A stretch of 64,000 nt of DNA from an uncultured Candidatus Rokubacteria bacterium (GTDB lineage Bacteria > Methylomirabilota > Methylomirabilia > Rokubacteriales > CSP1-6). Below are positions 2,432 to 64,000 of this stretch, piece after piece. A program made the position numbers and the translations under genes. The notes beneath the pieces were generated by a model. That model saw only the letters and a program-made list of their open reading frames with translations, was not told where the DNA came from and did not search any database. The first letter of the stretch is position 1. Each line of letters begins with the position of its first letter. Location of the stretch: contig CAVXJS010000010.1 in assembly GCA_963762145.1 (NCBI GenBank), forward strand, positions 260,203 through 324,202, written 5' to 3'.

Positions 2432-2437
2432 CAGATA

Positions 2438-2521: not shown

Positions 2522-2537
2522 AGACTAAGCGCCCGGC

Positions 2538-3080: not shown

Positions 3081-3108
3081 TTCCCAAGAAGAGGGGGATT
3101 GGGACTTT

Positions 3109-3816
3109 CTATGAGGGCCAGTAGATGTAGCGGCCGCAGGACTCGCAGGGGATCAGCGAGGCCTGCGCGCGGAGCTCCTGCAGGCGCTGGGGCGTGATCT
3201 GCATGCGGCAGGCCCCGCAGAAGTTCGGCTTCGCGACCGGCGCGAGCGCCAAGCCGCCGCGGGCGCGCAGGATGCGGTCGTAGTCGGCCAGGATGGGGCC
3301 CGGCAGCTGGCCGGCCAGCTCCTTGCGCTCCGTCCGCACCCCGACCAGCTCGGACTCGACCGCGCGGAGCTGCTCCTTGGCGGTGGCCTCCTGGCTGCGG
3401 CCCTCGGCCTCGCTCTGCTTGAAGCGCGCCTCCGCCTCGCGGATGTCGCCCGTCAGCCGCTCCTGGGCCTCCATGAGGACCAGGATCTCCTCCTCCATCT
3501 TGGCCTTCTCCTGCTTGATGTCCTCGATCTCGATCAGGACCGCGGAGTATTCCTTGTTGGTCTTGACCTCGTAGAGGCGGGCTTCGTTCTTGCTGCGCTT
3601 GCCCTGGACGACCTCGAGGTCCTTTTCCTTCGCGCGCTGGTCCTTGCGGGCGGCGTCGAGCCGGGCCTTGGCCTGCTCGACGTGCTTCTTGGCGTCCTCG
3701 ACCGCGGCGTGGATGGCGGCGATCTCCCGAGGGAGCCGCGCGGCGTCCGCCTCGAGGGCGGCGATGCGCGAGTCGATCGCCTGCAGACTGATCAGTGTCT
3801 GGAGCTTCTGGTCCAA
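3109..3816 (-). CDS. coiled-coil / C4 zinc-ribbon protein (COG1579, DUF164-like)
   Basis: 235-aa ORF with long heptad-like coiled-coil segments and a C-terminal CGACRMQI...CESCGR zinc ribbon. Confidence 0.7.
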
Positions 3817-3932
3817 TGACCCCCCTCTGGCATTTCTTGCGTTCCGATCCCTTCAAGCATTTCTTGTATTCGCTCGGCTCGCCTTCGGCTCACCTCGCCC
3901 TGCTGCCCTGCTACTGCCCCTGTCTAACGGGT

Positions 3933-4010
3933 TTTGGTGGGCCCACTTGGACTCGAACCAAGACCGGACCGGTTATGAGCCGGGGGCTCTGCCAATTGAG
4001 CTATGGGCCC
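3933..4010 (-). tRNA. tRNA-Met (CAU), elongator-type, CCA encoded
   Basis: Reverse complement reads GGGCCCATAGCTCAATTGGCAGAGC..CTCATAA..CTTGGTTCGAGTCCAAGTGGGCCCACCA. The G1-C72 pair excludes an initiator; an Ile2 (lysidine) identity is not excluded. Confidence 0.85.
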
Positions 4011-4039
4011 GGCGGTCATCATACCACCGCGTCCGGGGC

Positions 4040-5857
<1,818 letters not shown>

Positions 5858-5881
5858 GCCTCGCCGTTCTCCTGGTGGGGT

Positions 5882-7807: not shown

Positions 7808-7818
7808 CGGAAGTGGCC

Positions 7819-8193
7819 TCAGCCCTGGGTGAGCGTCGCGACGGTGGCGCCGGCGCCGCCCTCGGAGGACGCCCCCGGGCGGTGCTCGGCCACGAGGGGG
7901 TGGGCGCTCAGCAATTCCTCGACCGCCCGACGGAGGGCACCCGTGCCCTTGCCGTGGATGATGCGAACCGACGGGAGCCCGGCCAGGAATGCATCGTCGA
8001 GGTACTTTTCTAGCAGATCCCGCGCCTCATCGGTAGTCCGTCCTATGATATTCAGCTCCCCACCCACCGCGCTCTTGTCGGGGGTGGTGATTCGCCCCTC
8101 ACCGCCGGCCCCCTCACCCTGCCCTCTCCCCCTTCGGGGGCGAGGGGACGTTTCACCCTCTCCCCGCCGGGGAGGGCTGGGGTGAGAGGCCAC
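7819..8193 (-). CDS. mutS2: Smr-domain ORF (detached C-terminal part of MutS2)
   Basis: LNIIGRTTDEARDLLEKYLDDAFLAGLPSVRIIHGKGTGALRRAVEELL is a typical Smr domain. The N-terminal ~32 codons of this ORF are read from REP copy C. Confidence 0.8.
   Translation of the reverse strand: MASHPSPPRRGEGETSPRPRRGRGQGEGAGGEGRITTPDKSAVGGELNIIGRTTDEARDLLEKYLDDAFLAGLPSVRIIHGKGTGALRRAVEELLSAHPLVAEHRPGASSEGGAGATVATLTQG
8094..8189. repeat. REP-like palindromic element, copy C (two units), inside mutS2
   Basis: cgcccctcaccgccggccccctcaccctgccctctccccc-ttc-gggggcgaggggac gtttc accctctcccc-gcc-ggggagggctggggtgagagg. Confidence 0.65.
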
Positions 8194-10270: not shown

Positions 10271-10283
10271 GCGCGCCGGGCCC

Positions 10284-10826
10284 TCAGCGGCGCTCCACGA
10301 GGGCGAGCGCCTCGTCGGCGGCCTCGTCGCAGGCCGCCGCGATCGTCTCCTGCTCCTCGGGAAAGAAGGGCGAGAGCACGTGGTCGGAGACGCGATCCCG
10401 GTCCTCGCCGGGCCGGCCCGGCCGCCCGATGCCGATCTTGACGCGCCGGAGGTCGTTGGTGCCGAAGGCCGCGATCAGCGAGCGGACGCCGTTGTGGCCG
10501 CCCGCGCTGCCGGTGAGGCGCACCCGGACCTTGCCGAGCGGGAGATCCAGATCGTCGAAGACGATGACCACGTCGGCGGGTCCCAGGTGGAGCTTGCGCG
10601 CGAGGCGCGCCACCGGGGCGCCGGTGACGTTCATGAAGCTGCCGGGCTTGATGAGATAGAGGGGCTCGCCCTGCCAGCGGGCGGCGGCGACCGCGTGCCC
10701 GCTGTCGCGCTCGAAGCGCGTATGAATGCGATGGGCCAGCGCGTCGACGACGCGCTGGCCCACGTTGTGCCGGGTGTTGCGATATTCCGGGCCCGGATTC
10801 CCCAGGCCGACGATGGCCTGGGCCAC
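10284..10826 (-). CDS. pth: peptidyl-tRNA hydrolase
   Basis: 180-aa ORF with IVGLGNPGPEYRNTRHNVG, FMNVTG and GGHNGVRS motifs. Confidence 0.92.
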   Translation of the reverse strand: MAQAIVGLGNPGPEYRNTRHNVGQRVVDALAHRIHTRFERDSGHAVAAARWQGEPLYLIKPGSFMNVTGAPVARLARKLHLGPADVVIVFDDLDLPLGKVRVRLTGSAGGHNGVRSLIAAFGTNDLRRVKIGIGRPGRPGEDRDRVSDHVLSPFFPEEQETIAAACDEAADEALALVERR

Positions 10827-11525
10827 CTACTTCTTCTTCTCGCCGCCCTTGTCCTTCGCGTCCGCCTCGGCGGCTTCCCCCTCCTTCGGCTTCCGCTCGG
10901 TGAGCACTTCCGGCTCGGCCGCCGTCGCTTCCGTCGTCACCGCGGCCACCACTGCCGTCTCCTCGGCCGCCGGCGGGGCGACCGTGACCACCGCCTGGTT
11001 CGGGTCGTTGAGGACGCGCACGCCCTCGGGCACCTTCAGGTCCTTGACGGTCAGCACGTCGTGGATGGCGAGGTTCGTGATGTCGGCCTCGAGGTACTCC
11101 GGGATGTTTCCGGGCAGGCAGGAGACCCGCACCTCGCGGAGCACCATCTCGAGGATGCCCTGGGTGTCCTTGACGCCGATCGCCTCGCCGACGTGGTGCA
11201 CCGCCACCGTGACCTGGATGGCGCGGTCCATCGCCACTTCCTGCAGGTCCACGTGGATGAGATTCTCCGAGACCGGATCGAACTGCATGTCCCGGATGAT
11301 CGCCATCTTGGCGTCGGTGGTCCCCTCGAAGGTCACCCGGAACAGCTGGGTGCTGCCCTCGTGGCCGTGGATGAGGCGGAGCACGTCCTTGGGGGTCACC
11401 GCCACGTTCACCGGGCTCGCGCCGCCGTAGAGGGTCGCCGGGACCTGGCCCGCGGCGCGCAGGCGCCGGGCGGGGCCCTTGCCGGTGCCCTCGCGCTTCC
11501 GGATGGTCAACTCACGCATGTCCAT
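10827..11525 (-). CDS. rplY: 50S ribosomal protein L25 / general stress protein Ctc (long form)
   Basis: 232-aa ORF with RKREGTGKGPARRLRAAGQVPATLYG.., plus the Ctc-type C-terminal domain and a Lys/Glu-rich tail. Confidence 0.9.
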   Translation of the reverse strand: MDMRELTIRKREGTGKGPARRLRAAGQVPATLYGGASPVNVAVTPKDVLRLIHGHEGSTQLFRVTFEGTTDAKMAIIRDMQFDPVSENLIHVDLQEVAMDRAIQVTVAVHHVGEAIGVKDTQGILEMVLREVRVSCLPGNIPEYLEADITNLAIHDVLTVKDLKVPEGVRVLNDPNQAVVTVAPPAAEETAVVAAVTTEATAAEPEVLTERKPKEGEAAEADAKDKGGEKKK

Positions 11526-11556
11526 GACTCAGCTCCTTCAGGTGAAAGATTGGCTC

Positions 11557-12498
11557 TTACACGAAGAGGGTCGAGACGGATTCCTCGTCGTGGATGCGAC
11601 GGATCGCCTCCGCGAGCAGCGGGGCGACCGAGAGAACGCGGATCTTGGACAGCTGCCGCTCGGGCGTCAGCGGAACCGTGTTCGTGATGATGACTTCCTC
11701 GAGCACCGACTCCTTGATGCGGTCGATGGCCGGGCCGGAGAGCACGCCGTGCACCGCGCAGGCGAGGACGCGGCCGCGCGCCCTCGCGGCTGGAGCGCGT
11801 CCACCGCCTGGATCAGCGTGCCCGCGGTGTCGATCATGTCGTCGACGATCACGACGTCCTTGCCCTTGACGTCGCCGATGAGGTGCATGAACTCGGCGAC
11901 GTTGTTGCCCTCGCGCCGCTTGTCGATGATGGCGAGGCCCGCCTTGAGCCGCTTGGCGAGCGCGCGGGCGCGCTCCACGCCGCCCGCGTCCGGCGAGACC
12001 AGCACCGGGTCGTTCAGGTCCTTCTTGGCCAGGTAGTCGATGATCACCGGGGGCGCCGCGAAGAGGTGGTCCACCGGGATGTTGAAGAAGCCCTGGATCT
12101 GCCCGGCGTGCAGGTCGACCGCGAGCAGGCGCTGCGCGCCGGCCGCGGTGAGGAGGTCGGCCACCAGCTTGGCCGTGATCGGCATGCGCGGCTGCACCTT
12201 GCGGTCCTGGCGGCCGTAGCCGTAGTAGGGCAGCACCGCGGTGATGCGCCGGGCCGACGCGCGCTTGAGCGCGTCGATCATGACGAGCAGCTCCATCAGG
12301 TGATCGTTCACCGGGCGGGCACGTGGGCTGGATCACGAAGACGTCCTGGCCGCGGACGTTCTCGTTGATCTGCACGTAGACCTCGCCGTCGGAGAAGCGC
12401 GAGACGTCCGCGTCGCCCAGCGGGAGCTGAAGCGTCTTGGCGATCTCCTCCGCGAGCGGGCGGTTCGCGTTGCCGGAGAAGAGCTTCAGCTCGTACAT
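11557..12498 (-). pseudogene. prs: ribose-phosphate pyrophosphokinase, interrupted by two single-base indels as assembled
   Basis: The N-terminus ([30 protein letters not shown]) and C-terminus (..[25 protein letters not shown]) sit in one frame. The middle ([46 protein letters not shown]) sits in another. The frame changes near 12312 and 11770. Confidence 0.9.
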
Positions 12499-40740: not shown

Positions 40741-40772
40741 GCCCGGCGAGCACCGCCGGATCCGCGGAGCGC

Positions 40773-52167: not shown

Positions 52168-53139
52168 ATGAGCTCGTTCCCGACCCTGCAGGCACCGCTC
52201 GTCACGATCCGGTCGGCGACGGCAGCCGATCATGACGCGTTGCAGGCCCTCGAGGGTGCCGCCCCGGACTCGCGGGCGAGCCTGCTCCAGGCCCGGCGGA
52301 ACTTCTTCTCCCGGATGGCCGCCTACGACCGTACCCATGTCCTGGTCGCCGAGCAGGAGGGCCGGGTGGTCGGGGTCCAGTGCCTGGCCCTGACTCCCGT
52401 GCGGGTGGCGGGTCAGCCCTGCGCGGCCGGGTACTCGTTCAATACCCGCGTCGCGCCCGCCCACCAGACCCGGGGCCTCGGCACCCGGCTCATGAAGGCC
52501 GGAGCCGAGTGGCTCGAGCGCCAGGGCTGTCGCTATGTCACGGGCCTCATCGGCATCTCCAACACCGCGTCAATGAAGATGGTTGGGGCGCTGGGCTGGG
52601 AGACCGCGGGGCGCTTCGACTATCTGATCCTGGATCTGGCCCGGTTCGAGCCCGACCCGGCCGTGCGCATCCGGAAGGTGGATGCGCTCGGGGATCCGGC
52701 CCATGCCGCGTGGCGGTTCGGGGAGGTCTCGCTCCACCACTTCGTACCGCGGTACCTGGTCTCGGAGCTCTTCACGCCGTACCCCAAGGGCGCCTACATG
52801 GGGAGCTTGACCGCGTTCGGACCCGGGGGTAGCGCCTGGGTCTCCCTCTGGGACGACCGGGTCCGGCGTGGCCTGGATCCGGAGGTGGTCCGGGCGGTCA
52901 AGGCCTATGACGTGACCCTCAAGGGGGTGGGGGGCTTCCGCGCCTTCTCGGGCATCGCCAATACCCTCCGGGAGGCGGGTCTCGATCATGTCCTGATGCC
53001 GCTCCCGCACGATCCCGCGATGCGGGAGGTCCTGGAGCCCTACGCGGCGGAGATCCTGGAGTTCAATTTCGTCATCAAGCGACTGAACGGCGCGGGGCCC
53101 CTCCCCCCGGGCCCCATCTACTTCGACATCCGGCACTGA
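52168..53139 (+). CDS. GNAT-family N-acetyltransferase with extra C-terminal domain
   Basis: ..VLVAEQEGRVVGVQC.. and ..RVAPAHQTRGLGTRLMKAGAEWLERQG.. (acetyl-CoA binding Q/RxxGxG/A), followed by about 170 unassigned residues. Confidence 0.7.
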   Translation: MSSFPTLQAPLVTIRSATAADHDALQALEGAAPDSRASLLQARRNFFSRMAAYDRTHVLVAEQEGRVVGVQCLALTPVRVAGQPCAAGYSFNTRVAPAHQTRGLGTRLMKAGAEWLERQGCRYVTGLIGISNTASMKMVGALGWETAGRFDYLILDLARFEPDPAVRIRKVDALGDPAHAAWRFGEVSLHHFVPRYLVSELFTPYPKGAYMGSLTAFGPGGSAWVSLWDDRVRRGLDPEVVRAVKAYDVTLKGVGGFRAFSGIANTLREAGLDHVLMPLPHDPAMREVLEPYAAEILEFNFVIKRLNGAGPLPPGPIYFDIRH

Positions 53140-53417
53140 GCCGGTCGCCGGTTGCCGGCGCTGCGTTCCGCTGCCCGGACGCCTCTGGTACACTGAAGCG
53201 CCGTCATGGAGGCAAGCTTCGTCGTCCCGGGCCCCCTGGACGTGGCCGGGACGCTCTCCCGGTTCCACCTCTGGGTCGGAGACCCGGCCAACCGATTCGC
53301 CGACCCTGTCGCCCTCCCGGCGCCGGGACGCCCAGTGGTTTCCGGTCCGTCGTGTGGACCGGGGCGTGCGATGAGTGAGCCGGCGGTGCGCCGCCGCGCT
53401 GCTGCAGGAGGTGGGGC

Positions 53418-53750
53418 GTGACGCCGCTCGGGAAGTTCCTCCCCATCGTCGGCCAGCCCGATCCGGCCAAGCCGAAGGACGTGCACCTGGTCGGCCGGTA
53501 CGCGCTCGGCGTCACCTGGGCGGACGATCACGGCAGCATCTATCCATTCGATCGGCTCCGGCTGGACGATCCCGCGGGCGGCGAGGTCGACCAAGCGGCC
53601 GCGCTCACCCAGGAGATGACGTGGCCGAAGGAGATCAAGAAGCTCCCGGATACGCTGCGGGTGCTGTGGCTGGACGGCCGCGAGAGCCTCTACCCGTACT
53701 CCACGCTCCGCGCGCTCTGCCGGTGCGCGGGCTGCACGGGTGGCCACTGA
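53418..53750 (+). CDS. DUF971-domain protein
   Basis: ..LVGRYALGVTWADDHGSIYPFDRLR.. and ..LWLDGRESLYPYSTLRALCRCAGC.. as in DUF971 (gamma-butyrobetaine-hydroxylase N-terminal-like) proteins. Confidence 0.7.
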   Translation: MTPLGKFLPIVGQPDPAKPKDVHLVGRYALGVTWADDHGSIYPFDRLRLDDPAGGEVDQAAALTQEMTWPKEIKKLPDTLRVLWLDGRESLYPYSTLRALCRCAGCTGGH

Positions 53751-55198
53751 TGAGCGGGGAGCTGGACGTGGCGACGCGCCGAGGGCTGGTGCTGAGCGGC
53801 GTGATGGCCGCCGTGTTCCTGGCCGCGATGGAATCCACCGTGGTGGCCACCGCGATGCCCACCGTGATCGCCAGCCTGGGTGGCATCCGGATCTACTCGT
53901 GGACGTTCTCCGCGTTTCTCCTGACCTCCACCGTGACGATGCCGATCTGGGGCCGGCTCGCCGATCAGATCGGCCGGCGGCCCGCGTACCTGGCCGGGCT
54001 CGCGCTCTTCCTCCTCGGCTCGGCCCTCGCGGGGCTGTCACGCAGCATGGAGCAGCTCATCGCGTTCCGCGCGCTGCAGGGACTGGGGGCGGGGTCCCTG
54101 ATCTCGATCGGCATGACCATCGTCGGCGACCTCTACGGGGTCGAGCGGCGGGCGAAGATGCAGGGCTACTTCTCGAGCGTCTGGGGCGTCGCGTCCCTGG
54201 TCGGGCCGCTCGTGGGCGGTCTGCTCACGGATCGCGTGTCCTGGCGCTGGGTCTTCTACATCAACATTCCGTTCGGCCTGCTCGCCGCGGTGGCCATCGC
54301 GATCGGGCCTGCGCGATGAGCGCCGGGATCGGCCGCGCGGGTCATTCGACCTGCTCGGCATGAGCGTGTTCGCGGCCGCGATCTCGGCCCTGCTGGTGGG
54401 CCTGGTCGAGATCGGGGCGGGCGATCCCCGTCGGACGACCGGGACTCGCGCTGCTCGTGCTCTCCGCGGTGCTGCTCGTGCTGTTCGTTCTCTTCGAGCG
54501 CCAGGTGGCCGATCCGGTGATCCCGCTCCGTCTCTTCGCCAATCCGGTCCTGCGCGCGGCCGCGGTCACCGGCTTGCTCTCCGGGATGGCCATGTTCGGC
54601 GCGCTCACCTACGTGCCGCTCTACCTGCAGGCCGTCACCGGCAGCACTGCGACCCAGGCCGGCTGGGTGCTGATGCCGTTCGTGCTGGGCTGGGTGGTCT
54701 TCTCGGTGGTGGGCGCCCGGCTCGTGATGCGCGTGGGCTACCGGCGCGTCGTCCTGGCCGGGATGACCGCGCTCGTGCTCGCCTTCGTCTTGCTCGCGGG
54801 CTGGGACGAATCGCTCACGCGGCTCACCGCGGCCCGTGACATCACGCTCGCGGGCGTCGGCATGGGGCTGGTCTTCGTGCCGATGCTGATCGCGGTGCAG
54901 AACTCGGTGCCGCGATCCCTGCTGGGGTCGGCCACCTCGCTGACCGGATTCTTCCGGACGGTGGGCGGCGCGCTGGGGGTCACGGTGATGGGGGCGGCGA
55001 TGACCCACCGGCTCGAGCGGGCCCTCGATGGGGTCGTGGCGACCGCGCCGGTCGAGCTGCAGGAGCCCCTGCGCTGGCTGGCCGCCCATCCGGATCTCGC
55101 GGTCAACCCGATCACCCGGGCGACACTCGGCGAGGCCCTGCTGGGCCAGATGCGCCCGGTGCTGGCTCACGCGATCGGCGGGGTGTTCGTGGTCGGCC
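53750..55198 (+). pseudogene. MFS transporter (DHA2/EmrB-like), at least 3 frameshifts, extreme 3' end missing
   Basis: ..AAMESTVVATAMPTVIASLGG..PIWGRLADQIGRRP..FRALQGLGAG... Later TM segments lie in two other frames. Recognisable sequence stops inside the last TM (..AIGGVFVVGL) at about 55198. Confidence 0.75.
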
Positions 55199-55199
55199 T

Positions 55200-55532
55200 G
55201 TCCAGAAGAACAAGTACGGGCTGCCGGCGGTCACGCTCCGGGTCTTCAACGTCCTGAACGTGGACGCCTACCGGCTGCTCGACCACGCGGAAATGCTGGC
55301 GTTCCTGGGCGAGGCGGGGCTCGAATCGGTGCCCCAGCTCGGGACGCTGGTGCTGAACCACACGGTGGACGAGCTGGTGGCCTTCTCCGAAGGGACGAGC
55401 GTGCTCAACCCGAAGGTCCAGCGGGAAGGCGTGGTGCTTCGCCCGCTCGCGGAGGAGTATGACGAGGACATCGGCGGCCGGCTGAGCTTCAAGGCGATCA
55501 ATCCGAAGTTCCTGCTGAAGTACGACGAGTAG
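55200..55532 (+). pseudogene. ATP-dependent RNA ligase family, C-terminal fragment only (about 110 aa)
   Basis: The frame reads VQKNKYGLPAVTLRVFNVLNVDAYRLLDHAEMLAFL..VPQLG..SVLNPKVQREGVVLRP..GGRLSFKAINPKFLLKY. This resembles the C-terminal third of DRB0094/Rnl5-like RNA ligases as I recall them. No N-terminal adenylyltransferase motifs are present upstream. Confidence 0.55.
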
Positions 55533-55610
55533 GCGGGCGGCTGCGTGGCGAGGGTCAGGTCCTCGCCACCGCCCGAACCACGAAGATCGGCAACGCGATA
55601 TCGGGTCCCC

Positions 55611-56513
55611 ATGAGCACCCTGCAACGCCTGACAGACCGTGGCCTGATCCGGCCGCCGCGATGGCTGCCCGGGAACGTCCAGTACGAGACGATCATGGGC
55701 TCGGTGGCCTACGGGGTGTCCTCGGATACGAGCGACGTCGACGTCTACGGCTGGGCGATCCCGCCGAAGGAGGACATCTTCCCCCACCTCCGGGGCGAGG
55801 TCCCCGGCTTCGGGCGCCAGGCGAAGCGGTTCGAGCAGTTCCAGGAGCACCATATCCAGGACCGGGACGCCCTCGCCGGGCACGGCCGGAGCTACGACCT
55901 GGCGATCTTCGGCATCGTCAAGTTCTTCGCCCTGGCGATGGAGAACAACCCGAACATCATCGACTCCCTCTTCACGCCCACGACCTGCGTCCTGCACAGC
56001 ACTCGGGTGGGCAACCTCGTGCGGGAGAACCGGCGGCTGTTCCTGCACAAGGGGGCCTGGCCGAAGTTCAAGGGGTACGCCTACAGCCAGCTGCACAAGC
56101 TGGCGATCAAGGAGCCGCAGGGCAAGCGGGCCGAGCTGGTCGCCGAGCACGGCTTCGACACCAAGTTCGGCTACCACGTCGTCCGGCTCATCGGCGAGGT
56201 GGAGCAGATCCTGATGGAAGGCGACATCGACCTCCAGCGCAATAACGAGCAGCTCAAGGCGATCCGCCGGGGTGAATGGACCGAGGAGCGTCTGCGTCAG
56301 TGGTTCGCGGACAAGGAGGCGGACCTCGAGCGCGTGTTCGCCGAGAGCACGCTCCGGGCCGTGCCGGACGAGGCGGGGCTGCGAGCCCTGCTCCTGAACT
56401 GCCTGGAGGAGCATTACGGCAGCCTCGAGGGATGCGTCGTGGACCCCGATCGGGCGGTCGTCGCCCTGCGGAACATCCAGGCCGAGCTGGAACGGGTGAA
56501 GGACCTGCTATGA
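55611..56513 (+). CDS. Pol-beta-superfamily nucleotidyltransferase, PF10127 (Nuc-transf/RlaP) type, paralog 1
   Basis: ..YETIMGSVAYGVSSDTSDVDVYGWAIPP.. (GS-x-D-x-D NTase motif), ..KFFALAMENNPNIIDSLF.., ..AYSQLHKL... Confidence 0.7.
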   Translation: MSTLQRLTDRGLIRPPRWLPGNVQYETIMGSVAYGVSSDTSDVDVYGWAIPPKEDIFPHLRGEVPGFGRQAKRFEQFQEHHIQDRDALAGHGRSYDLAIFGIVKFFALAMENNPNIIDSLFTPTTCVLHSTRVGNLVRENRRLFLHKGAWPKFKGYAYSQLHKLAIKEPQGKRAELVAEHGFDTKFGYHVVRLIGEVEQILMEGDIDLQRNNEQLKAIRRGEWTEERLRQWFADKEADLERVFAESTLRAVPDEAGLRALLLNCLEEHYGSLEGCVVDPDRAVVALRNIQAELERVKDLL

Positions 56514-57287
56514 GCGAGGACCGGACCGTGGACGTCGATGAACGGCTCAGGCAGGAGGTCGCCCGCCACCCGTACCCGCTGGTCTTCGCCACGATCAGCG
56601 GGGCGCACCTCTACGGCTTCCCGTCGCCCGACTCGGACTACGACCTGCGGGGCTGCCACGTCCTGCCGGCGCGGGAGGTGGTCGGCCTCGACGTCGGGCC
56701 GGAGACGATCGAGTCCTCGAAGGACGAGGACGGGCTCGAGCTCGACCTGGTCACGCACGACGCCCGGAAGTTCTTCGGCCTGATGCTGAGGAAGAACGGC
56801 TACGTGCTGGAGCAGCTGTACTCGCCGCTCGTGGTCCACACCACGCCCGAGCACGAGGAGCTGAAGGCGATCGCCCGCGGGCTGCGTCACGAGGTACCAA
56901 GCCCACCACTACTTCGGGTTCGCCGAGACGCAGTGGAGGCTGTTCGACAAGGAGCGGCCCCGGCGGGTCAAGCCGCTGCTCTACGTCTACCGGGTTCTCC
57001 TCACGGGCATCCACCTGATGCGAACGGGCGAGGTCGAGGCGAACCTCGTGCGGCTCAACGTGGAGGCCCGGCTCTCGCACGTCGATGACCTCATCGCCCG
57101 GAAGATCGCCGGGCCCGAGAAGTCGGCCCTCGACGATGCCGACGTGGCGTTCCACCGACGGGAGTACGAGCGGCTCAGGGCCGAGCTGGAGGCGGCCCAT
57201 CAGTCCAGTTTGCTGCCCGAGACGCCGACCGCCCGGCCGGCCCTGAATGACCTGCTCGTGCGGATGCGGATGCGAACGGCGGGGTGA
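56510..57287 (+). pseudogene. Pol-beta-superfamily nucleotidyltransferase, PF10127 (RlaP) type, paralog 2, one frameshift near 56880
   Basis: ..LVFATISGAHLYGFPSPDSDYDLRGCHVLP.., ..KFFGLMLRKNGYVLEQLYSPL... After a frame switch: ..QAHHYFGFAETQWRLFDKE..KPLLYVYRVLLTGIHLM... The ATG overlaps the paralog 1 stop. Confidence 0.7.
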
Positions 57288-57394
57288 GCGGCTTCGCCCG
57301 CCGCCAGGTCTGCGGCCATCGGTTGTTATCCGGCCCCCAATCGGTCACGATGATCGCTCCACTTACAGTTGTCGAAGGCGCGAGATCGTGACCG

Positions 57395-58369
57395 ATGAAG
57401 AACGTGGGTTGGCTCTTCCTGGCGGTCCTCATCGCGTATGGCTGCGCCGTGGTCGCGCCGCTCCTGCGATACCGGCTTCGGGGTGGGGTCGGCGCCTTCG
57501 TCGGCTGGTGCTTCGTGCCGATGATCCTCGCCTGCCCATTGCTCATCCCGTCCGCGAACGTCGGGCTGCGGGCCGCGTCCGCCTTCGCATCGGGCGACAT
57601 CACCTTCAAGATGGTCGACTACTTTCGCCATTGGGGCCACGTGGACCGGAGCATCGTCCTTCGCGAGTACTACCGCTTCCTGATCCCGTTCCCGGTCCTC
57701 TCCGCCGTCTATCCCGATCACAAGCGCCGGTTGCTGCGTCCGGAGAGCCCCTGGCCGCAGGTCCTGCGCCTCTTCGGTGGGATCGTCGGTGTCACCATGG
57801 CCCTCCTGGCGGTGAGGACTCTCTCCGGCATCGCCCAGGTCCGATCGAGCTTCGCGTTGAACCATGCCGTGATGTTGCCGACCTTCGTGCTCGCGATCGA
57901 ATCGCTCTCGCGGGCGCTCTGCGGGCTCGAACGCCTGGCGGGATTCGACACGACTCCGATCATCCGAAACGCCTACCTGTCGCGGACCGTCTCCGAGTTC
58001 TGGCGACGGTACAACGACCGGATCCATGACTGGCTCTACCGCAACGTCTTCCAGGCGACCGGAGGCCGACGCGCCCCGGTCCGTTCCGTGCTGCTGGTGT
58101 TCCTGGTCAGCGGCCTGTTTCACGAGGTGATGTTCGCGCTGGCGACCTCGCGACTGACCGGCTATCAGCTCGCGTTCTTCGCGATCCAGGGCCCGGCGGC
58201 GCTGGCCTCGGGACGCCTCGAGCGCCTGGCCAGGCGAGGCGGGATCGCGGGCAAGATCGCGGCCCACGGGGCCACGATCCTCTTCGTCGCCGTCACGTCC
58301 GTCCTCTTCTTCGACGGGGTCGGCAAGATCTTCCCCTTCATCTATGCCAGCCAGTCGCCGCTGCCGTAG
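57395..58369 (+). CDS. MBOAT_2 / wax-synthase-like membrane acyltransferase
   Basis: 324-aa polytopic ORF with ..VSEFWRRYNDRIHDWLYRNVF.. and ..GLFHEVMF.. (conserved His). Codon third positions are visibly less GC-rich than in core genes. Confidence 0.55.
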   Translation: MKNVGWLFLAVLIAYGCAVVAPLLRYRLRGGVGAFVGWCFVPMILACPLLIPSANVGLRAASAFASGDITFKMVDYFRHWGHVDRSIVLREYYRFLIPFPVLSAVYPDHKRRLLRPESPWPQVLRLFGGIVGVTMALLAVRTLSGIAQVRSSFALNHAVMLPTFVLAIESLSRALCGLERLAGFDTTPIIRNAYLSRTVSEFWRRYNDRIHDWLYRNVFQATGGRRAPVRSVLLVFLVSGLFHEVMFALATSRLTGYQLAFFAIQGPAALASGRLERLARRGGIAGKIAAHGATILFVAVTSVLFFDGVGKIFPFIYASQSPLP

Positions 58370-58540
58370 GACGCGTTCCCCAGGTGTCCGTTCAGTGACA
58401 CCACGTCGCTCGTGAGTGTCCTTCGCCAAACGGATAGCGATTGGTGCTTGCGTGCAAAAGTTGGTGGGGTGGCTGCTACAGGAAGGCGAACCGTGAAGCA
58501 GGGCCCACCAGGGCGAATAGCCGGATGAGTCCGATAGCGG

Positions 58541-59133
58541 CTAACCACGGATGGCCTGGATCGCTCGTCCGCTTGCCAGCCGGACCACCACGTCCTTGTC
58601 CTCGAGCGCCGCGGTGAGGGCCGGGACGGCTCCCTGGCGTCCGGGCCAATCCGGCCCAGCGCCCCGCGCTGGCGCAGCGGACATTCCCTGCTCGTCCTTG
58701 AGCGCCGCGGTGAGGGCCGGCACGGCCTCCCTGGCATCCGGGCCGATCCGGCCCAGCGCCTCCGGCTCTCGCCAGCGTCCCAAGCGCCTCGGTGAGGGCC
58801 GGCACGGCCTCCTTGGCCTCCGGGCCAGATCTCTGTCCGCGCCCGAGGCATCGAGCCCGACGACCGGCATCGCGGCATCCGGCCTACCGCGTCCCTGAGC
58901 GGTGCGATGAGGGCCGGCACGGCCTCCCTGGCATCCGGGCCGATCCTGCCCAGCGCCTCAGCGGACTACCCGGACCTCGTCCTTGAGCGCCGCGATGAGG
59001 GCCGGCACGGCCTCCCTGGCAGCCGGGCCGATCCGAGCCCAGCGCGTGCGCGGCATTGCCTGCAGCGGACACTCGAATCCCCGTCCTTGAGGCCCGCGAT
59101 GAGGCCTTCGACTCGTTCCTGCAAATCGGACAT
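58541..59133 (-). pseudogene. HEAT (PBS-lyase-type) repeat protein, decayed or mis-assembled
   Basis: ATG at 59133 with a GGGAG RBS (MSDLQERVEGLIAGLKDGDSSVR..). AVPALTAALKDE.. / ..ALGRIGPDAREAVPAL.. units are spread over all three frames. The DNA repeat starts are spaced 96, 82, 115, 88 and 104 bp. Confidence 0.6.
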
Positions 59134-59865
59134 GACAACTCCCAGATTAAATACCCGGGGCGGTGGGGGAGAACACCTCCCTCGGCACCGCCTCCGCCGC
59201 GGGCGGTCGATGGACCGCCGGCGACGGAAGCGACGCCGTGAAAACCCTTGCCTCGCGTAGCAGCGCAGCCCGGGCCGGGGCCCCGGGGGGCCTCCGCGAG
59301 GGCAGCGCATCATCTATATATAGAAATCAGACCCGAGATTGAGAGGGCAAAGAGCGGGGTCTCGAAGAGACTGGAACGGTGGAGAGTGAAATCTAGTGAA
59401 ATTATTGCGACATGTCAATATCGCCGGAATTTGGCTGCTTCAGGACGGACGTGCGGGAGCAGGGACCCGGCCAGGGGAACAATTGCATCCTCCGGTCCGG
59501 GCGAAGACGGGTGACGACCCGGAAGAATCCCCGACCGGGATCGGCCCGAGGCCCTTCCGGAACAAGTCTCGAATCGGCGCGAACATCTTCGGCGACTCCT
59601 GCGTCTACAGTGGCATGCAAGGCAAGGCGATGGCCCATGTGAGCGGCCTCGCCGAAGCGGCTCGAGGCACCGAAACGACCGAGGTCACGATGTTTGCCGT
59701 GTGGACCAGTCACCCCTGTAAGCGATCCGGAGCGGGTCGTCTCGCCGGTCAACCGGCGTATTCGCTGCCCGTCCCTCCGCTGCGCCTGTGACGCCCCGGC
59801 CGACGCAACCTCGACGGTTCGCCCCGGGCCCGGCGTCATGAGACAGCCGGGCCTCTTCGTTGGAT

Positions 59866-59937
59866 GGGCCGGTAGCTGAGACGGTGTAGCGGCGGCCTGA
59901 AGAGCCGCAGACGTGGATTCGAGCGCCACCCGGCCCA
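59866..59937 (+). tRNA. tRNA-Phe (GAA), no CCA
   Basis: gggccgg ta gctg agacggtg tagc g gcggc ctGAAga gccgc agac gtgga ttcgagc gccac ccggccc a. It has a 4-nt variable loop and one A.G mismatch in the T stem. Confidence 0.7.
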
Positions 59938-59949
59938 CTCTCAAAGAAT

Positions 59950-60022
59950 GGCTCGTTCGTCTATCGGCCGAGGATACCGCCCTTTCAAGGCGAAGAGGTG
60001 GGTTCGATTCCCACACGGGCTA
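59950..60022 (+). tRNA. tRNA-Glu (UUC), no CCA
   Basis: ggctcgt tc gtct atcggccga ggat a ccgcc ctTTCaa ggcga agag gtggg ttcgatt cccac acgggct a. It closely resembles the classical bacterial tRNA-Glu body and has two G.U pairs in the acceptor. Confidence 0.75.
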
Positions 60023-60036
60023 CTCGCAGGAACGAT

Positions 60037-60110
60037 CAGGGCGTGGGAAAGCCTGGCAATCCGCAAGCTCGGGGGGCTTGAGACCGCCGGTTCGAATCCG
60101 GCCGCCCTGA
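60037..60110 (+). tRNA. tRNA-Pro (GGG as drawn; CGG if one G of the G6 run is spurious), no CCA
   Basis: cagggcg tg ggaa agcctggca atcc g caagc tcGGGgg gcttg agacc gccgg ttcgaat ccggc cgccctg a. Position 33 is C instead of U, and there is an A.A pair in the D stem. Confidence 0.6.
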
Positions 60111-60188
60111 CTCACAGACAGAACTCGTAGCGAGGACCGAGGCGATGGTCTGGATCAAACGCATACCCCGGCACGAGGTCTCCCGACC

Positions 60189-60259
60189 GGGGTCGTGGTG
60201 TAGCGGCAGCATGTCGGCCTTTTAAGCCGGTCGGCGGGGTTGAAATCCCTCCGGCCCCA
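60189..60259 (+). tRNA. tRNA-Lys (UUU), no CCA
   Basis: ggggtcg tg gtgt agcggca gcat g tcggc ctTTTaa gccgg tcgg cgggg ttgaaat ccctc cggcccc a. The T loop is TTG instead of TTC, and the first T-stem pair is mismatched. Confidence 0.6.
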
Positions 60260-60331
60260 TGGCGCCTCGCTCAACGGGAGAGCGCTCGCCTTATAAGCGA
60301 ACGACGAGGGGTTCAACTCCCCCGGCGCCGA
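60260..60331 (+). tRNA. tRNA-Ile (UAU), no CCA
   Basis: tggcgcc tc gctc aacggga gagc g ctcgc ctTATaa gcgaa cgacg agggg ttcaact ccccc ggcgccg a. It starts 0-1 nt after the preceding tRNA and has a U1.G72 pair. Confidence 0.6.
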
Positions 60332-60354
60332 CCAACGGGAGAAGCAAACAGAGG

Positions 60355-60425
60355 CGGCCTGTCGTTCAACGGGAGAACACCCGGCTGATAACCGGGCGGC
60401 GGAGGTTCGACTCCTCCCTGGCCGA
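60355..60425 (+). tRNA. tRNA-Ile (GAU), no CCA
   Basis: cggcctg tc gttc aacggga gaac a cccgg ctGATaa ccggg cggc ggagg ttcgact cctcc ctggccg a. It has the same D loop as the UAU species and one U.U mismatch in the acceptor. Confidence 0.65.
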
Positions 60426-60440
60426 CTCGCGATGGCTATC

Positions 60441-60513
60441 GGGACTGAAGTTCTAGCGGCAGAACGTCCGGCTCTTAACCGGTTCGGTGAGGGTTCGAGC
60501 CCCTCCGGTCCCA
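60441..60513 (+). tRNA. tRNA-Lys (CUU), no CCA
   Basis: gggactg aa gttc tagcggca gaac g tccgg ctCTTaa ccggt tcggt gaggg ttcgagc ccctc cggtccc a. Position 8 is A instead of U. Confidence 0.65.
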
Positions 60514-60523
60514 CTCCGATGCT

Positions 60524-60595
60524 GCACTGGTCGTCTAGCGGCGAAGATTCCGCCCTCGTAAGGCGGGGACGTGGGTTCGAGTCCCACCCGGTGCT
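60524..60595 (+). tRNA. tRNA-Thr (CGU), no CCA
   Basis: gcactgg tc gtct agcggcga agat t ccgcc ctCGTaa ggcgg ggac gtggg ttcgagt cccac ccggtgc t. All stems pair. The D arm, anticodon stem and T arm are near-identical to the Glu gene at 59950. Confidence 0.75.
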
Positions 60596-60611
60596 CTCGG
60601 CCCTCTTTGCA

Positions 60612-61216
60612 CTTCCATCTGCAGGCAGCCGTTGTGCGCGGTGACGACCTGGTAGCTGAAGCCGGCGGCGAGCAGCAGGTCGGGCGGGTCAGGCCGTGGC
60701 GGAGCAGCCAGCCGGGTCCGAGCTCGCCGCCGAACTCCTCGTCGTAGGTGAAGTGCAGCTCGACCGCGCCCTTCAGCGGCAGGTTCAGCGCCTTCGAGCG
60801 CGCGCAGCGCGAAGGTGTAGGTCGCGAAGTCGCTCTTGCTGACCGCCGAGGCGCGGCCGTAGAGCTTGCCGTCGGCGACCTCGCCGCCGTAGGGATCGTG
60901 GGTCCAGCCGTCGCCGGGCGGCACGACGTCGCCGTGCGCGTTGAGGGCGATCGTCGGGCCGTCGCCGTGGCGGCGCCGCACGATCAGGTTGGTCAGCGAT
61001 TCGAGCCCGTAGGCCGCGACATCGTCGGCCGGGACCGGCGTGGCGCTCGGCCTCGAGGCCGAACTCGGCGAGCAGTTCGGCGGTGCGTTCGGCGTGCGGC
61101 GCATTGCGGCCGGGCGGGGTGTCGGTCGGGACCTGCACCAGCGCCTGCAGGAAGCGGACTTCCTCGGCGAAGTGCGCGTCGACCCAGCGGTCGAGTTGTT
61201 CGTACGGAGTGGTCAT
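60612..61216 (-). pseudogene. M20-family metallopeptidase (ArgE/DapE-like), N-terminal about 200 aa only, frameshifted
   Basis: MTTPYEQLDRWVDAHFAEEVRFLQALVQVPTDTPPG.. then ..LIVRRRHGDGPTIALNAHGDVVPPGDGWTHDPYGG..GRASAVSKSDFATY..AGFSYQVVTAHNGCLQMEV. Similarity ends about 15 nt from the tRNA-Thr 3' end. Confidence 0.65.
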
Positions 61217-61242: not shown

Positions 61243-63119
61243 TCAGCGGGTCGTTTCGGCGGCCACCTGGTCGAGCAGGCGGGCGAATGCCTCGACGGCG
61301 AGCTGGATGTCGTCGTTGGTGCTCGATTCGAGCGGGTTGTGGCTGATGCCGGCGTTCTCGCCGCGCACGAACAGCATGCCCTGCGGCATCACCTCGTGCA
61401 GCTTCATCGCGTCGTGGCCGGCGCCGCTCGGCATCCGGTGCGGCGGCAAGCCGGCCGCCTCGACCGCGCGGGCCCAGTGCTGCTGCCACTCGGCCGCACA
61501 CGGCGCGGCGGCGGCGCGCATCGTCTCCTCGATCCGGTAGCTCAGGCCGCGCCGCTCGCAGATCGCTTGCAGCTCGCGCGAGCACGTCGTGCGCGCAGGC
61601 GTCGCGCACCGGGTCGGTCGTCGAGCGGATGTCGAGCGTGAACTGGCAGCGGCCCGGGATCACGTTGGTCGAGCCGTTCGGCACGTTCAGGATGCCCATC
61701 GTGCCGACCACGTTCGGCTCGGCCGCCGCGCGCTCCTCGAGGTAGAGCGCGAGCTCGGCGACCGCGGTCGCGGCGTCGCGGCGGCGGTCCATCGGCGTCG
61801 TGCCGGCGTGGCTCGCCATGCCGATCACCTCGCCGGCATAGCGCACGCCGCCGTTGATCGACGTGACGACGCCGAGCGGCAGGTCGAGCTCGTTCAGGAC
61901 CGGGCCCTGCTCGATGTGCAGCTCGACGAAGCCGAGGTACATCGAGGGGTCGCGGCGCAGCGACGCGATCGTCGTCGATGCGCAGGCCGGCCTGCTGCAT
62001 CGCGTCGCGCATCGCGACGCCGTCGGCATCGAGCTGGTCGAGCCAGGCCGGGTCGAACTGGCCGACCAGCGCGCCCGAGCCGAGGAACGTCGCCTTGTAG
62101 CGCTGGCCTTCCTCCTCGGCGAAGCCGACGACCTCGAAGTCGTAACGGCAGGCGCCGGCCGGCGCGGTGCAGCTCGCGCACGCAGGCCATCGGCGCGAGG
62201 ATGCCGAGGCGCCCGTCGTACTTGCCGCCGTTGCGCACGGTGTCGTAGTGGCTCCCCGTCAGCAGCCGCCGGCTGCTGACAGGGGCCACTTCGTGGTTGA
62301 ACGGGCCCGACCCCTCCCGCTCCCGCCCCGTCCAGGGGAGGGCCTGACGCGTTCGGCAAGCGTGGTGTCGCTCCAGTAAACACCGACGACGTTGCCGACC
62401 GCATCGATCGAGACCTCGTCGAAGCCGCACTCGTCGCGCATCCAGGCGACCAGCTGCGCCGCGCAGGCGCGGTGCGCGTCGGTCAGGTAGGTGACCGTCA
62501 GCTGTCCCAGCTCGGCATAGCCGGGGTCGGTGTGCCGGGCGAGCGATTCGGCCCAGTCCCAGACGAGGTTGCCGAGCTCCGGCGTCACGCCGAACTTGTC
62601 GTCGAGGCGGATCTCGGCGATGCGGTGGATGTTGCGCAGGCACTCGGCGAGCTCGAAGTCGGGGTGGTTCGCGAGTCGGCGCTCGAAGGTCGCGATGATC
62701 TGCCGCGCGGCTCAGGCCGGCGCCGCGCGGGCCGCGCACCGCGAGGATGAACGGCCAGCCGAACTTGGCGTTGTAGTCGGCGTTGAGCCGCTGGATCCGC
62801 GCGAACTCGTCCGGCGTGCAGTCGGTCAGGCCGGCGCGGCCCTGCTCGTTGCGTCGACTCCGCGGTCAGGCTCTGGCTGACCATCGCCTTGCCGGCCAGC
62901 TCCGGGTGGGCGCGCACCAGCGCGATCTGCTTCTCGCGCCCGCTGCCGCGCACGACCTCGACGAGTGCACGCTTCAGCGCCGCGAGGCTCGCGAACGGCC
63001 GCGCGCCCGCGGCCTGCGCCGGCGATCCACGGCGAATGCTCGTAGGTGCCGTCGAGCAGCGCGGTGAACTCGTCGCGCGAGGCGGCGTTCAGTCGGTCGA
63101 GCGTCAGCACAGCGGGCAT
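61243..63119 (-). pseudogene. fused OHCU decarboxylase / allantoate amidohydrolase-like protein, many frameshifts
   Basis: N-terminus MPAVLTLDRLNAASRDEFTALLDGTYEHSPWIA.. and ..VRAHPELAGKAMVSQSLTAESTQ.. (OHCU decarboxylase). It continues without an obvious stop into ..LTVTYLTDAHRA..DAVGNVVGVY.., ..LLTGSHYDTVRNGGKYDGRLGI.., ..ELHIEQGPVL.., ..MPSGAGHDAM..FVRGENAGISHNPLE.. (M20 amidohydrolase). Confidence 0.6.
62306..62344. repeat. degenerate REP-like element inside the allantoate-amidohydrolase-like coding region
   Basis: cccgacccctcccgctcccgcccc-gtcca-ggggagggcc resembles the ccctcgcccc-N4-gggggagaggg unit of copy B. It adds a Pro/Gly/Arg-rich stretch (..RPSPGRGGSGRG..) where homologues I recall are shorter. 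Confidence 0.4.
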
Positions 63120-63129
63120 CGAGAAAGCC

Positions 63130-64000
63130 TCAGAGGGTCACGCGGATCGTCTTGACCAGCGGCGCGAGCGCTCGCCACCTGGTCGCGCACGAACGCGTTG
63201 AATTGCGCCGGCGTGCCCGGCGTGGCGGTCACGCCGAGCTCGAGCAGGCGCTGCCTGATCTCGGGCTGGGCGAGCACTTCGTTGACCGCGGTGTTCAGGC
63301 GTGCGACGAGGTCGGCCGGCATCTTGGCCGGGCCGGTCAGGCCGAAGAAGTTGTCGAGCACGAGCTTGCGGTAGCCGGCCTCGACGACGGTCGGCACGTC
63401 GGGCACGAGCGGCGAGCGCTGCGACGACGTCACGGCGAGCGGGCGGATCTGGCCGCTCTTGAAGTACGGCACGAACGCGGTCACGACGTCGATGCCGACC
63501 GGGATCACGCCGGAGATCAGGTCGGTCGTCATCGGCGCGCCGCCGCGGTACGGCACGTGGCCCATCTTGATGCCCATCGTGCGCATCATCAGCTCGCCGT
63601 AGATGTGGCCGATCGAGGCCGGGCCGCCGGAGCCGAACTGCAGCTGGCCCGACTTGCGCGCGGCGTTCTCGAGGTCGACGATGGTGTTGATGCCGGTCGC
63701 CGGATTCGCCATCACGACGCACGGCGCCGAGCCGATCGCCGCGATGTGCGTGAAGTCGACGAGCGGGTCGTACGGCTGCTTCTCGAGCGCGAACGGGCCG
63801 ATCGAGATCGGCGTCGAGTTCGACAGCATCAGCGTGTAGCCGTCGGGCGCCGACTGGGCGACCGCGCTGCCGCCGACGCTGCCGCCGGCGCCCGGCCGGT
63901 TGTCGACGATCACCGCCTGGCCGAGCCGCTTGCCGAGCTGCTCGCCGACGACGCGGGCGACGATGTCGCTGGCGCCGCCGGCCGCAAACGTGACGACGAT
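63130..64000 (-). pseudogene. tripartite tricarboxylate transporter substrate-binding protein (Bug/TctC family), 5' end outside window, one frameshift near 63175
   Basis: ..IVDNRPGAGGSVGG..PDGYTLML..VPYRGGAPMTTDLISG..QIRPLAVTSSQRSPLVPDVPT... A frame switch gives the tail ..ALAPLVKTIRVTL and a stop at 63130. Confidence 0.75.

Follow-up and report, generated by a model that had tools for sequence, protein, structure and literature searches.

A planctomycete RNA ligase-RlaP1-RlaP2 segment in a probably chimeric metagenome contig: a proposed RNA-repair operon

Main finding

The window analysed here, a 64,000-nucleotide stretch of a metagenome contig assigned to Candidatus Rokubacteria, holds what looks like a decaying RNA-repair module, in which the 3' part of an ATP-dependent RNA ligase gene is followed by two RlaP-type nucleotidyltransferase genes, the second of them frameshifted. 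The truncation of the ligase and the frameshift in RlaP2 are most likely assembly artefacts of a chimeric and indel-prone contig and not signs of decay. Judged by matches to related sequences, the window is a mosaic of three phyla, with Rokubacteria sequence up to position 55199, Isosphaeraceae sequence from 55201 to 60609 and Burkholderiales sequence from 60610 onwards (Table 1). The RlaP family name reportedly goes back to Burroughs & Aravind 2016.

The explanation that we favour, and consider likely, is that positions 55201-60609 represent a 5.4-kb Isosphaeraceae (Planctomycetota) piece that would have been misassembled to Rokubacteria DNA on its left and Burkholderiales DNA on its right, with a native, intact Rnl-RlaP1-RlaP2 operon whose RlaPs are probably active in RNA repair. 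As the damage in the window would be non-biological, the native unit is most likely an intact operon in the order DRB0094/Rnl5-type ligase, 78 nt, RlaP1, ATGA overlap and RlaP2. The gene identities, conserved catalytic residues, co-inheritance and neighbourhoods of relatives on which this explanation draws were established here, and the activity of RlaPs is taken from the literature.

Table 1 Features at and around the module in the 64-kb window
Feature	Position	Strand	Evidence
MFS transporter gene, 3'-truncated; end of the Rokubacteria block, outside the module	54457-55199	+	PF07690 MFS_1, E 1.5e-16
Junction 1, Rokubacteria/Isosphaeraceae chimeric join	55199-55201	.	Contigs diverge on both sides
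DRB0094-type (Rnl5-like) ATP-dependent RNA ligase, C-terminal 110 codons and stop	55200-55532	+	PF09414, TIGR02306
RlaP1, divergent RlaP-type Pol-beta nucleotidyltransferase, 300 aa, apparently intact	55611-56513	+	PF10127, phrog_388
ATGA overlap, RlaP2 start codon on RlaP1 stop codon	56510-56513	+	Read directly from the sequence
RlaP2, canonical RlaP nucleotidyltransferase, about 258 aa, split by one inserted base	56510-57287	+	PF10127
Single extra base, source of the RlaP2 frameshift	56878-56879	+	Relatives and short-read contigs
Eight-gene tRNA array, native to the planctomycete block, cut by junction 2	59866-60596	+	ARAGORN
Junction 2, Isosphaeraceae/Burkholderiales chimeric join	60609-60610	.	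Contig divergence and contig starts

Identity of the ligase fragment and the two RlaP paralogs

The ligase fragment comprises 110 aa (55200-55529) and a TAG stop codon (55530-55532). In PF09414 RNA_ligase it matches the stretch from 81 to 171 of a 171-position profile (E 5.6e-7; 30.3 bits, gathering score 27), and in TIGR02306 RNA_lig_DRB0094 positions 238-341 of 341, there with 23.9 bits against a cut-off of 151 because the fragment is a third of the protein; a full-length relative of 367 aa (locus L015) scores 184.9 bits, and its residues 258-367 share 83% identity with the fragment. The alignment thus falls on the C-terminal third of the family of Deinococcus radiodurans DraRnl (DRB0094)/Rnl5. 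Ligases of this type have an N-terminal domain and an adenylylation lysine whereas the window copy has neither, as it lacks residues 1-257 including that domain and motif I (KLDG/KxDG; KLDG at residue 190 of the L015 ligase). These residues are missing because of the chimeric join, so that as assembled this copy cannot function. No 5' part of the ligase was found elsewhere in the 64-kb window.

By its profile matches RlaP1 is a member of a divergent subfamily that lies closer to phrog_388 (E 6.7e-42) than to PF10127 (55611-56510; E 1.1e-14, 55.2 bits, cut-off 23). Residues G30, S31, D42, D44 and D96 are invariant in an alignment of 43 sequences. In the AF2 model of RlaP1 (pLDDT 90.7) residues 23-101 form a beta core and residues 102-296 are helical, a predicted arrangement that corresponds to the RlaP layout, in which a helical domain lies C-terminal to the NTase domain, and Foldseek searches with this model returned NTase folds including ANT(4')/KNTase, HalB and phage NTases. 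Sequence searches of the PDB with RlaP1 and RlaP2 gave spurious matches only and no RlaP structure. RlaP1 is 88-91% identical to proteins of Isosphaeraceae and Singulisphaera; an exact-sequence look-up of the protein, run for both of two possible starts, hit no contig.

RlaP2 matches PF10127 in two halves, at positions 4-117 (E 8.7e-32, 111.2 bits) and 124-249 (E 3.1e-18, 66.8 bits; cut-off 23 for both). Among 40 relatives S30, G31, D41, D43 and D45 do not vary; E77 and D79 are conserved in at least 90%. Conservation of these catalytic positions suggests that both paralogs are probably active Pol-beta nucleotidyltransferases. Of 43 related loci, 19 are inferred to share this 4-nt overlap between RlaP1 and RlaP2.

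Much of the sequence-only reading of these genes therefore stands. It had assigned both nucleotidyltransferases to PF10127, and all profile scores lie above the gathering score, the matches being much stronger than chance would give; the GS..D.D motifs that it quoted are present in both, the ATGA overlap can be read in the sequence, and the two proteins are paralogs as it proposed, though distant ones (26% identity, hhalign probability 96.8%). Its view of the upstream fragment as RNA-ligase-like is likewise borne out by the PF09414 and TIGR02306 alignments. Its description of the ligase as a 5'-truncated remnant does not hold in a biological sense, as the cut falls on the Rokubacteria/Isosphaeraceae junction.

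Comparison with characterised systems

It had also been stated that no biochemical characterisation of the family was known, which is outdated. PfRlaP and PaRlaP, from Pseudomonas fluorescens and P. aeruginosa, are reported to add 1-2 NMP onto RNA 3'-OH ends in a Mn2+-dependent manner, an RlaP crystal structure is reported in the same study, and T4 NrdC.11 is cited there as an RlaP (Carruthers, Fatma & Huang, December 2025, bioRxiv 10.64898/2025.12.29.696909). The Pseudomonas RlaP resembles the window pair in its PF10127 membership, its Pol-beta GS/DxD/D set, its NTase and helical domains and its RNA-ligase neighbours. It is however encoded by one gene flanked by rtcB and rtcA, with RtcB as its partner, whereas the window has two translationally coupled paralogs beside an ATP-dependent 5'-PO4 ligase.

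Following this biochemistry, the operon may act where nuclease damage removes nucleotides from tRNA or some other RNA. One or two NMPs would be restored at the 3'-OH end by the RlaP pair, whose members probably work as one complex or divide the specificity between them, and the ligase would then seal the 3'-OH/5'-PO4 break; both the cooperation within the pair and its joint action with the ligase are inferred. The planctomycete block contains no end-healing enzyme of the Pnkp type.

A further set of relatives is found in phages. Jumbo phages of Caulobacter and Rhizobium encode proteins with approximately 50% identity to RlaP1, whose model superposes on a BFVD model with a TM-score of 0.85-0.89, and homologues occur in 452 phage records. 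The phage RlaP-type NTases (phrog_388) in the two records inspected are solo genes and, unlike the window pair, have no RlaP2 partner or ligase alongside.

Ligases, tRNA arrays and the RlaP pair in related loci

RlaP1 is followed by RlaP2 in approximately 55 of 80 related loci, across phyla and mostly without an adjoining ligase, and the distance matrices of the two proteins are strongly correlated (r = 0.95). On these comparisons the two genes are inherited together as a cassette. In Microbulbifer, Cellvibrionaceae and Arenicella the pair is adjoined by RtcB, PrfH and RtcA, and in Gammaproteobacteria the cassette lies inside RtcB/RtcA/PrfH operons; association with RtcB was seen in L062, L063, L067 and L074-78. 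RtcB-RtcA(-PrfH, -Rsr/Ro60) RNA-repair operons and the neighbourhoods of cyanobacterial tRNA L-arrays have been described (Santamaria-Gomez et al. 2021, PMC8421152). They find parallels in relatives: those of the RlaP pair occur in RtcB/RtcA/PrfH operons, and those of the ligase lie within arrays of over 20 tRNA genes. The window block itself is without RtcB, RtcA, RtcR and Ro60. The earlier RNA-repair interpretation fits these surroundings, in which RtcB, RtcA, PrfH, a CCA-like NTase with HD, Ro60 and tRNA arrays recur.

Adjacency of RlaP to a ligase, whether Rnl or RtcB, is a feature of a minority of loci only. Around 10 of the 80 RlaP1 loci have an RNA ligase of whatever kind within 6 kb; an RlaP was present in the fetched 5-6 kb flank of 2 of approximately 127 ligase loci. 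As most RlaP pairs have no ligase within 6 kb and most ligases no RlaP, joint action would not be obligatory. Where an Rnl does stand beside RlaP it occurs in three orientations: tandem (the window and a short-read contig of run X3), convergent (L015) and divergent (L091, with a remnant in L030). The ligase and RlaP1 lie 78 nt apart on one strand both in the window and in X3, which suggests one operon. A metagenome scan with the ligase fragment yielded 47 loci without an RlaP beside the ligase, the tandem triad appearing elsewhere only in the X3 contig. The ligase-RlaP-RlaP triads for which a neighbourhood search had been suggested are exceptional in the clade, though adjacency lies well above chance (approximately 0.3 loci expected, estimated by assuming some 10 genes in a 12-kb neighbourhood and some 6000 in a genome).

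The tRNA array of the planctomycete block lies 2.6 kb downstream of RlaP2, and relatives of the ligase are embedded in arrays of at least 20 tRNA genes (L144, L147, L148), with the same flanking tRNA-Trp and tRNA-Thr on the short contig L146. The arrays of these relatives are accompanied by EndoV, Ro60 and Pth2. A tRNA array beside the RlaP pair was found in 0 of 60 loci, so this link is not conserved. We offer only as a speculative extension, with rather low confidence, that the native Isosphaeraceae genome has a mobile island of tRNA supply plus tRNA repair, headed by Rnl-RlaP1-RlaP2 and carrying a long tRNA array, in which RlaP1 and RlaP2 would form an obligate two-subunit enzyme with labour divided by nucleotide or substrate, comparable to the split CC-adding and A-adding enzymes, and would rebuild excised nucleotides before Rnl5-type sealing.

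The rarity of triads also bears on whether the RlaP1-RlaP2 cassette has anything to do with the ligase. It could instead serve ligase-independent maintenance or tailing of RNA 3' ends, such as the rebuilding of tRNA 3' termini alongside CCA-adding/HD enzymes, or be a phage-derived counter-defence, its position next to the ligase being incidental. This would agree with the roughly 70 of 80 RlaP1 loci and 125 of approximately 127 ligase loci in which the other partner is absent over the distances given above, with the CCA-like PolyA_pol and HD genes that flank RlaP1 in L063, L066, L055, L072 and L018, and with the solo phage homologues. We consider it unlikely nonetheless, as RlaP adjoins ligases of two unrelated classes, Rnl and RtcB, across five or more lineages and in three orientations, far above the chance expectation, and as the 78-nt same-strand spacing recurs in the window and X3.

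Contig junctions and the weaker explanations

The junctions were judged from contigs of other samples; Logan contigs can document that a sequence is present but not that it is missing. Short-read contigs from four soil runs match the left block with 99.5-100% identity and cover it continuously from 36 to 55.2 kb, and the GroEL of this block is 93-99% identical to those of Rokubacteria MAGs. In the left contigs of all four runs matching ends exactly at 55199, where the MFS gene continues, and 55.2-64 kb is absent; the contigs of runs X25-X28, approximately 99.5% identical to the MFS gene, read CCTGATCGCGGTCGCC... past this point and extend the ORF as LLIAVAALLS. On the other side an 845-nt contig of run X3, 98.6% identical to the middle block, joins the window at 55201. 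Upstream of that position it carries 343 nt more of an uninterrupted ligase ORF (...IQAEVIGPGI, then QKNKYG), so that the intact 5' part that the sequence-only reading had suggested looking for was recovered in part, the whole 5' end not being reached. Base 55200 matches neither flank. Words from junction 1 were sought across indexed public runs, of which none held more than 3 of 8 sampled words, with one-sided holders only.

At the second junction the X1 and X3 contigs cover the tRNA array and then diverge from the window at 60609, and the X73 and X75 contigs begin at 60610-60619. Beyond it a TctC protein (63107-64000) is 93% identical to its Caldimonas counterpart, and its best 80 matches are Burkholderiales-type betaproteobacteria bar a few oddly labelled records.

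A simple within-genome deletion fusing the MFS gene to the ligase was also considered. It was rejected, since a near-identical left population exists without the entire right side and the flanks come from different phyla.

The extra base in RlaP2 lies in GCCCG[C]GGGCTGC at approximately 56878, where four intact relatives have GCCCG-GGGCTGC, and it is absent from the contigs of X1, X3 and X7. Comparison with short-read contigs showed further 1-bp insertions at 12 or more positions (40765, 49246, 51485, 54304, 54446, 60793, 61256, 61971, 62144, 62706, 62852 and 63172). Comparison with these contigs and relatives suggests that the frameshift is most likely an error of the assembly consensus. The frameshift noted from the sequence is present as an extra base, but it is most likely not genuine decay given that relatives and other samples lack it.

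Real decay would mean that the contig is correct, that horizontal transfer brought a piece of planctomycete DNA into a Rokubacteria genome and thereby truncated the MFS gene and the ligase, and that RlaP2 later became truly frameshifted in a dying module. The window as assembled does show this truncated and frameshifted state, and one locus, L030, has a genuine ligase remnant next to its RlaP pair, a 44-aa N-terminal piece. However, because the right flank is Burkholderiales, this account requires two adjacent recent inter-phylum transfers, and it has to accommodate three boundary genes that all break off inside their ORFs, nearly identical Rokubacteria populations from four runs in which the MFS gene goes on without an insert, a junction present in no indexed run, and a high rate of 1-bp insertions that breaks many genes in the assembly. 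We judge it very improbable, and retain the chimeric join of an Isosphaeraceae piece as the likely origin of the damage.

Least credible of all, a signalling NTase role for the RlaP pair in anti-phage defence, like that of Hailong HalB/CD-NTases and producing a nucleotide or oligonucleotide signal without RNA repair, could draw on the high rank of HalB among the PDB structures that match the RlaP1 model (Foldseek, E approximately 4e-4, TM at most 0.51 normalised to HalB), but this match is no better than those to aminoglycoside NTases and so reflects the shared fold only, PADLOC models gave no match to RlaP1, RlaP2, the ligase or the MBOAT protein, no conserved effector gene was found adjoining the pair, and characterised RlaPs work on RNA 3' ends.

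Implications

The module is probably an ordinary and intact planctomycete RNA-repair operon. Its apparent decay is most likely an artefact that calls for caution, and the contig is unfit for inference of gene decay or horizontal transfer. The segment adds a planctomycete case of RlaP beside an ATP-dependent RNA ligase, and the analysis documents that RlaP1 and RlaP2 are widely inherited as a pair, with active sites that both appear intact from their conserved residues. The sole biochemical study so far concerns single RlaPs, and pairs such as this one could differ from them in specificity or processivity.

The RlaP pair and the ligase fragment

All of the ORFs and motifs described in the sequence-only reading were found in the sequence, and its assignment of both nucleotidyltransferases (RlaP1 and RlaP2) to PF10127 is borne out by profile matches, with RlaP2 matched as two pieces, each in its own frame (E 8.7e-32 and 3.1e-18). 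The upstream fragment had been assigned to the RNA ligases and aligns with the C-terminal half of the PF09414 RNA_ligase profile (E 5.6e-7, 30.3 bits, cut-off 27) and the last 104 positions of TIGR02306 (DRB0094-type ATP-dependent RNA ligase), in agreement with that assignment. A full-length ligase relative of 367 aa at comparison locus L015 scores above the TIGR02306 equivalog cut-off; residues 258-367 of this protein are all that the window copy holds, and no remaining ligase part was found anywhere in the 64 kb of the window. The spacer between the ligase and RlaP1 is 78 nt.

Features of the locus (window positions)
Feature	Position	Strand	Details
Ligase C-terminal fragment	55200-55529	+	110 residues, end ...FKAINPKFLLKYDE, then TAG
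RlaP1	55611-56513	+	300 aa; PF10127, E 1.1e-14
RlaP2 start, ATGA overlap	56510-56513	+	read from sequence
Eight tRNA genes	59866-60596	+	730 bp; 2.6 kb downstream of RlaP2

RlaP1 is a distant, full-length paralog of RlaP2 (26% identity, hhalign probability 96.8%), and both retain the Pol-beta catalytic set. G30, S31, D42, D44 and D96 are invariant among 43 RlaP1 sequences, as are S30, G31, D43 and D45 among 40 RlaP2 sequences, in which E77 and D79 are almost invariant. The confidently predicted structure of RlaP1 (pLDDT 90.7) has an NTase core and a helical domain, and its closest PDB neighbours are the kanamycin/ANT(4') nucleotidyltransferases and Hailong HalB, a likeness which, judged from the model, is one of fold only.

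The top viral neighbour of the RlaP1 model is a phage protein (TM 0.85-0.89) and RlaP1 matches phrog_388 (E 6.7e-42). Homologues of approximately 50% identity are present in jumbo Caulobacter and Rhizobium phages, with matches in 452 phage records in total. Jumbo phages encode RlaP1-type NTases with 41-53% identity (records H1-H15, among them Caulobacter phage CcrBL9 at 52821-53708 and Xanthomonas phage XacN1), and 306 Mycobacterium phage records have RlaP1 matches. In the two records inspected neither RlaP2 nor a ligase lies beside the phage NTase, its neighbours being small unknown ORFs.

Gene pairing and genomic neighbourhoods

RlaP1 is followed by an RlaP2 partner at approximately 55 of the 80 loci, in taxa as diverse as Planctomycetota, Arenicella and Polaribacter, and the 4-nt overlap was inferred in 19 of 43. 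Pairwise distances of RlaP1 and RlaP2 are correlated (r = 0.95), a value to which shared ancestry alone contributes. The ligase beside the pair is in tandem in the window and in a contig from public sequencing run X3, convergent in L015 and divergent in L091. At locus L030 a 44-aa N-terminal ligase remnant (3107-3238, minus strand) is divergent from the pair, the counterpart of the intact arrangement in L091, and on this sequence layout L030 may represent a genuine ligase loss.

Ligase adjacency of RlaP is the exception, yet non-random. RlaP lies inside the fetched 5-6 kb flank of only 2 of approximately 127 ligase loci, and chance would by our own estimate give approximately 0.3 ligase-adjacent loci in 80. 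The neighbourhoods of the pair are mostly without a ligase and include CCA-like/HD genes, both of which favour a pair that works without a ligase, an alternative we consider unlikely.

PrfH-associated-type RtcB, PrfH and RtcA are found near RlaP in Microbulbifer, Cellvibrionaceae and Arenicella. In the gammaproteobacterial loci L062, L063, L067 and L074-L078 RlaP1, or RlaP1-RlaP2, lies a few kb or less from PrfH-type RtcB and RtcA; PrfH itself was recognised in L062 and L063, both of which also contain small tRNA clusters.

The tRNA array of the window comprises Phe, Glu, Pro, Lys-UUU, Ile-UAU, Ile-GAU, Lys-CUU and Thr-CGU genes. In Planctopirus and relatives the ligase lies within arrays of >20 tRNA genes, with an EndoV-like gene on one side and Ro60 and Pth2 genes on the other. 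Such long (>20-gene) arrays hold the ligase in L147 (Planctopirus hydrillae, 350-12400), L144, L146, L148, L192 and L199, with tRNA-Trp approximately 50 nt upstream and, in L144 and L146, tRNA-Thr approximately 45 nt downstream. The L147 ligase neighbours, namely an Endonuclease V-like gene, Ro60 (TROVE + vWA) and Pth2, look like an RNA quality-control island.

Interrupted copies were seen elsewhere. One MAG (MFD01721.bin.2.217) carries two RlaP1-RlaP2 cassettes on separate contigs (L060 and L001), the RlaP1 copy in L060 being split over three frames. Ligase homologues in L154 (Singulisphaera sp. Ch08, complete genome, 6001-7058; frame change at residue 292/293), L149 and L152 each contain an interrupting frame change or insertion and are either pseudogenes or sequencing errors.

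Probable chimeric junctions and single-base insertions

The MFS transporter ORF directly upstream of the ligase fragment is no longer sensible at 55199. Contigs from four soil runs (X25-X28) match the window at 99.5-100% identity between 36 kb and 55199 and all depart from it at exactly 55199, their onward sequence (CCTGATCGCGGTCGCC...) reading LLIAVAALLS, a further transmembrane stretch, in the MFS frame; essentially no sequence matching 55.2-64 kb was found in these runs. An 845-nt X3 contig has 98.6% identity to 55201-55702 and carries 343 extra bases upstream of 55201 (...GCCGAGGTGATCGGGCCGGGCA/TCCAGAAG, join at the slash), the translated join (IQAEVIGPGI/QKNKYG) giving an uninterrupted ligase as in L015. 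At most 3 of the 8 sampled words spanning this junction were present in any indexed run. At the second junction contigs of X1 and X3 depart from the window at 60609 and those of other runs start at 60610-60619; it falls 13 nt past the last tRNA gene, cutting the array. The readable boundary genes are cut mid-ORF, these being the MFS and ligase genes at the first junction and an apparent M20 peptidase gene at the second.

GroEL of the left block has 93-99% identity to Rokubacteria/Methylomirabilota MAGs, RlaP1 of the middle block 88-91% to Isosphaeraceae and Singulisphaera proteins, and a TctC-family protein of the right block (63107-64000) 93% to Caldimonas, its best 80 matches being to Burkholderiales-type betaproteobacteria apart from a few oddly labelled records. 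The contig is most likely a three-phylum mosaic running from Rokubacteria through Isosphaeraceae to Burkholderiales.

Alignment with four intact relatives places an extra base near 56878 (GCCCG[C]GGGCTGC). The frameshift reported for RlaP2 is present in the assembly as a single base, which is missing from contigs of X1, X3 and X7 and from all intact relatives; without it RlaP2 is a normal 258-aa protein, and the frameshift is most likely an assembly error. Against short-read contigs from the same, near-identical or closely related populations, single-base insertions were located at 40765, 49246, 51485, 54304 and 54446 in the left block and at 60793, 61256, 61971, 62144, 62706, 62852 and 63172 in the right. 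Insertions of 1 bp disrupt two KimA-like permease genes (frames broken by those at 49246 and 51485), the MFS gene (54304 and 54446) and an amidohydrolase gene, a pattern typical of long-read consensus errors.

Real gene decay following horizontal transfer appears highly improbable, as it requires two adjacent inter-phylum transfers, is contradicted by the run-through contigs and would be read from a contig demonstrably rich in errors. The ligase truncation, initially described as a remnant, is most likely a chimeric junction, the X3 contig extending the ligase ORF upstream. The unusual-looking features of the locus are most likely artefacts, and findings spanning 55199-55201 or 60609-60610 are suspect.

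Predicted function of the pair

The RlaP family, its RNA-ligase link and its activity are already known. The sequence-only reading knew of no biochemical characterisation of the family, which is superseded by a December 2025 preprint in which single Pseudomonas RlaPs add 1 or 2 NMPs to RNA 3'-OH ends, require Mn2+, prefer cleaved-tRNA mimics and partly restore aminoacylation of tRNA one nucleotide short before ligation (bioRxiv 10.64898/2025.12.29.696909). A defence-signalling role for the pair found no support. By our analysis the mechanism here would most likely be extension of an RNA 3' end by the RlaP pair, like the Pseudomonas RlaPs, followed by sealing of the extended RNA by the 5'-PO4/3'-OH ligase; we infer that RlaP1 and RlaP2 may act as a complex and that the pair may act with this particular ligase.
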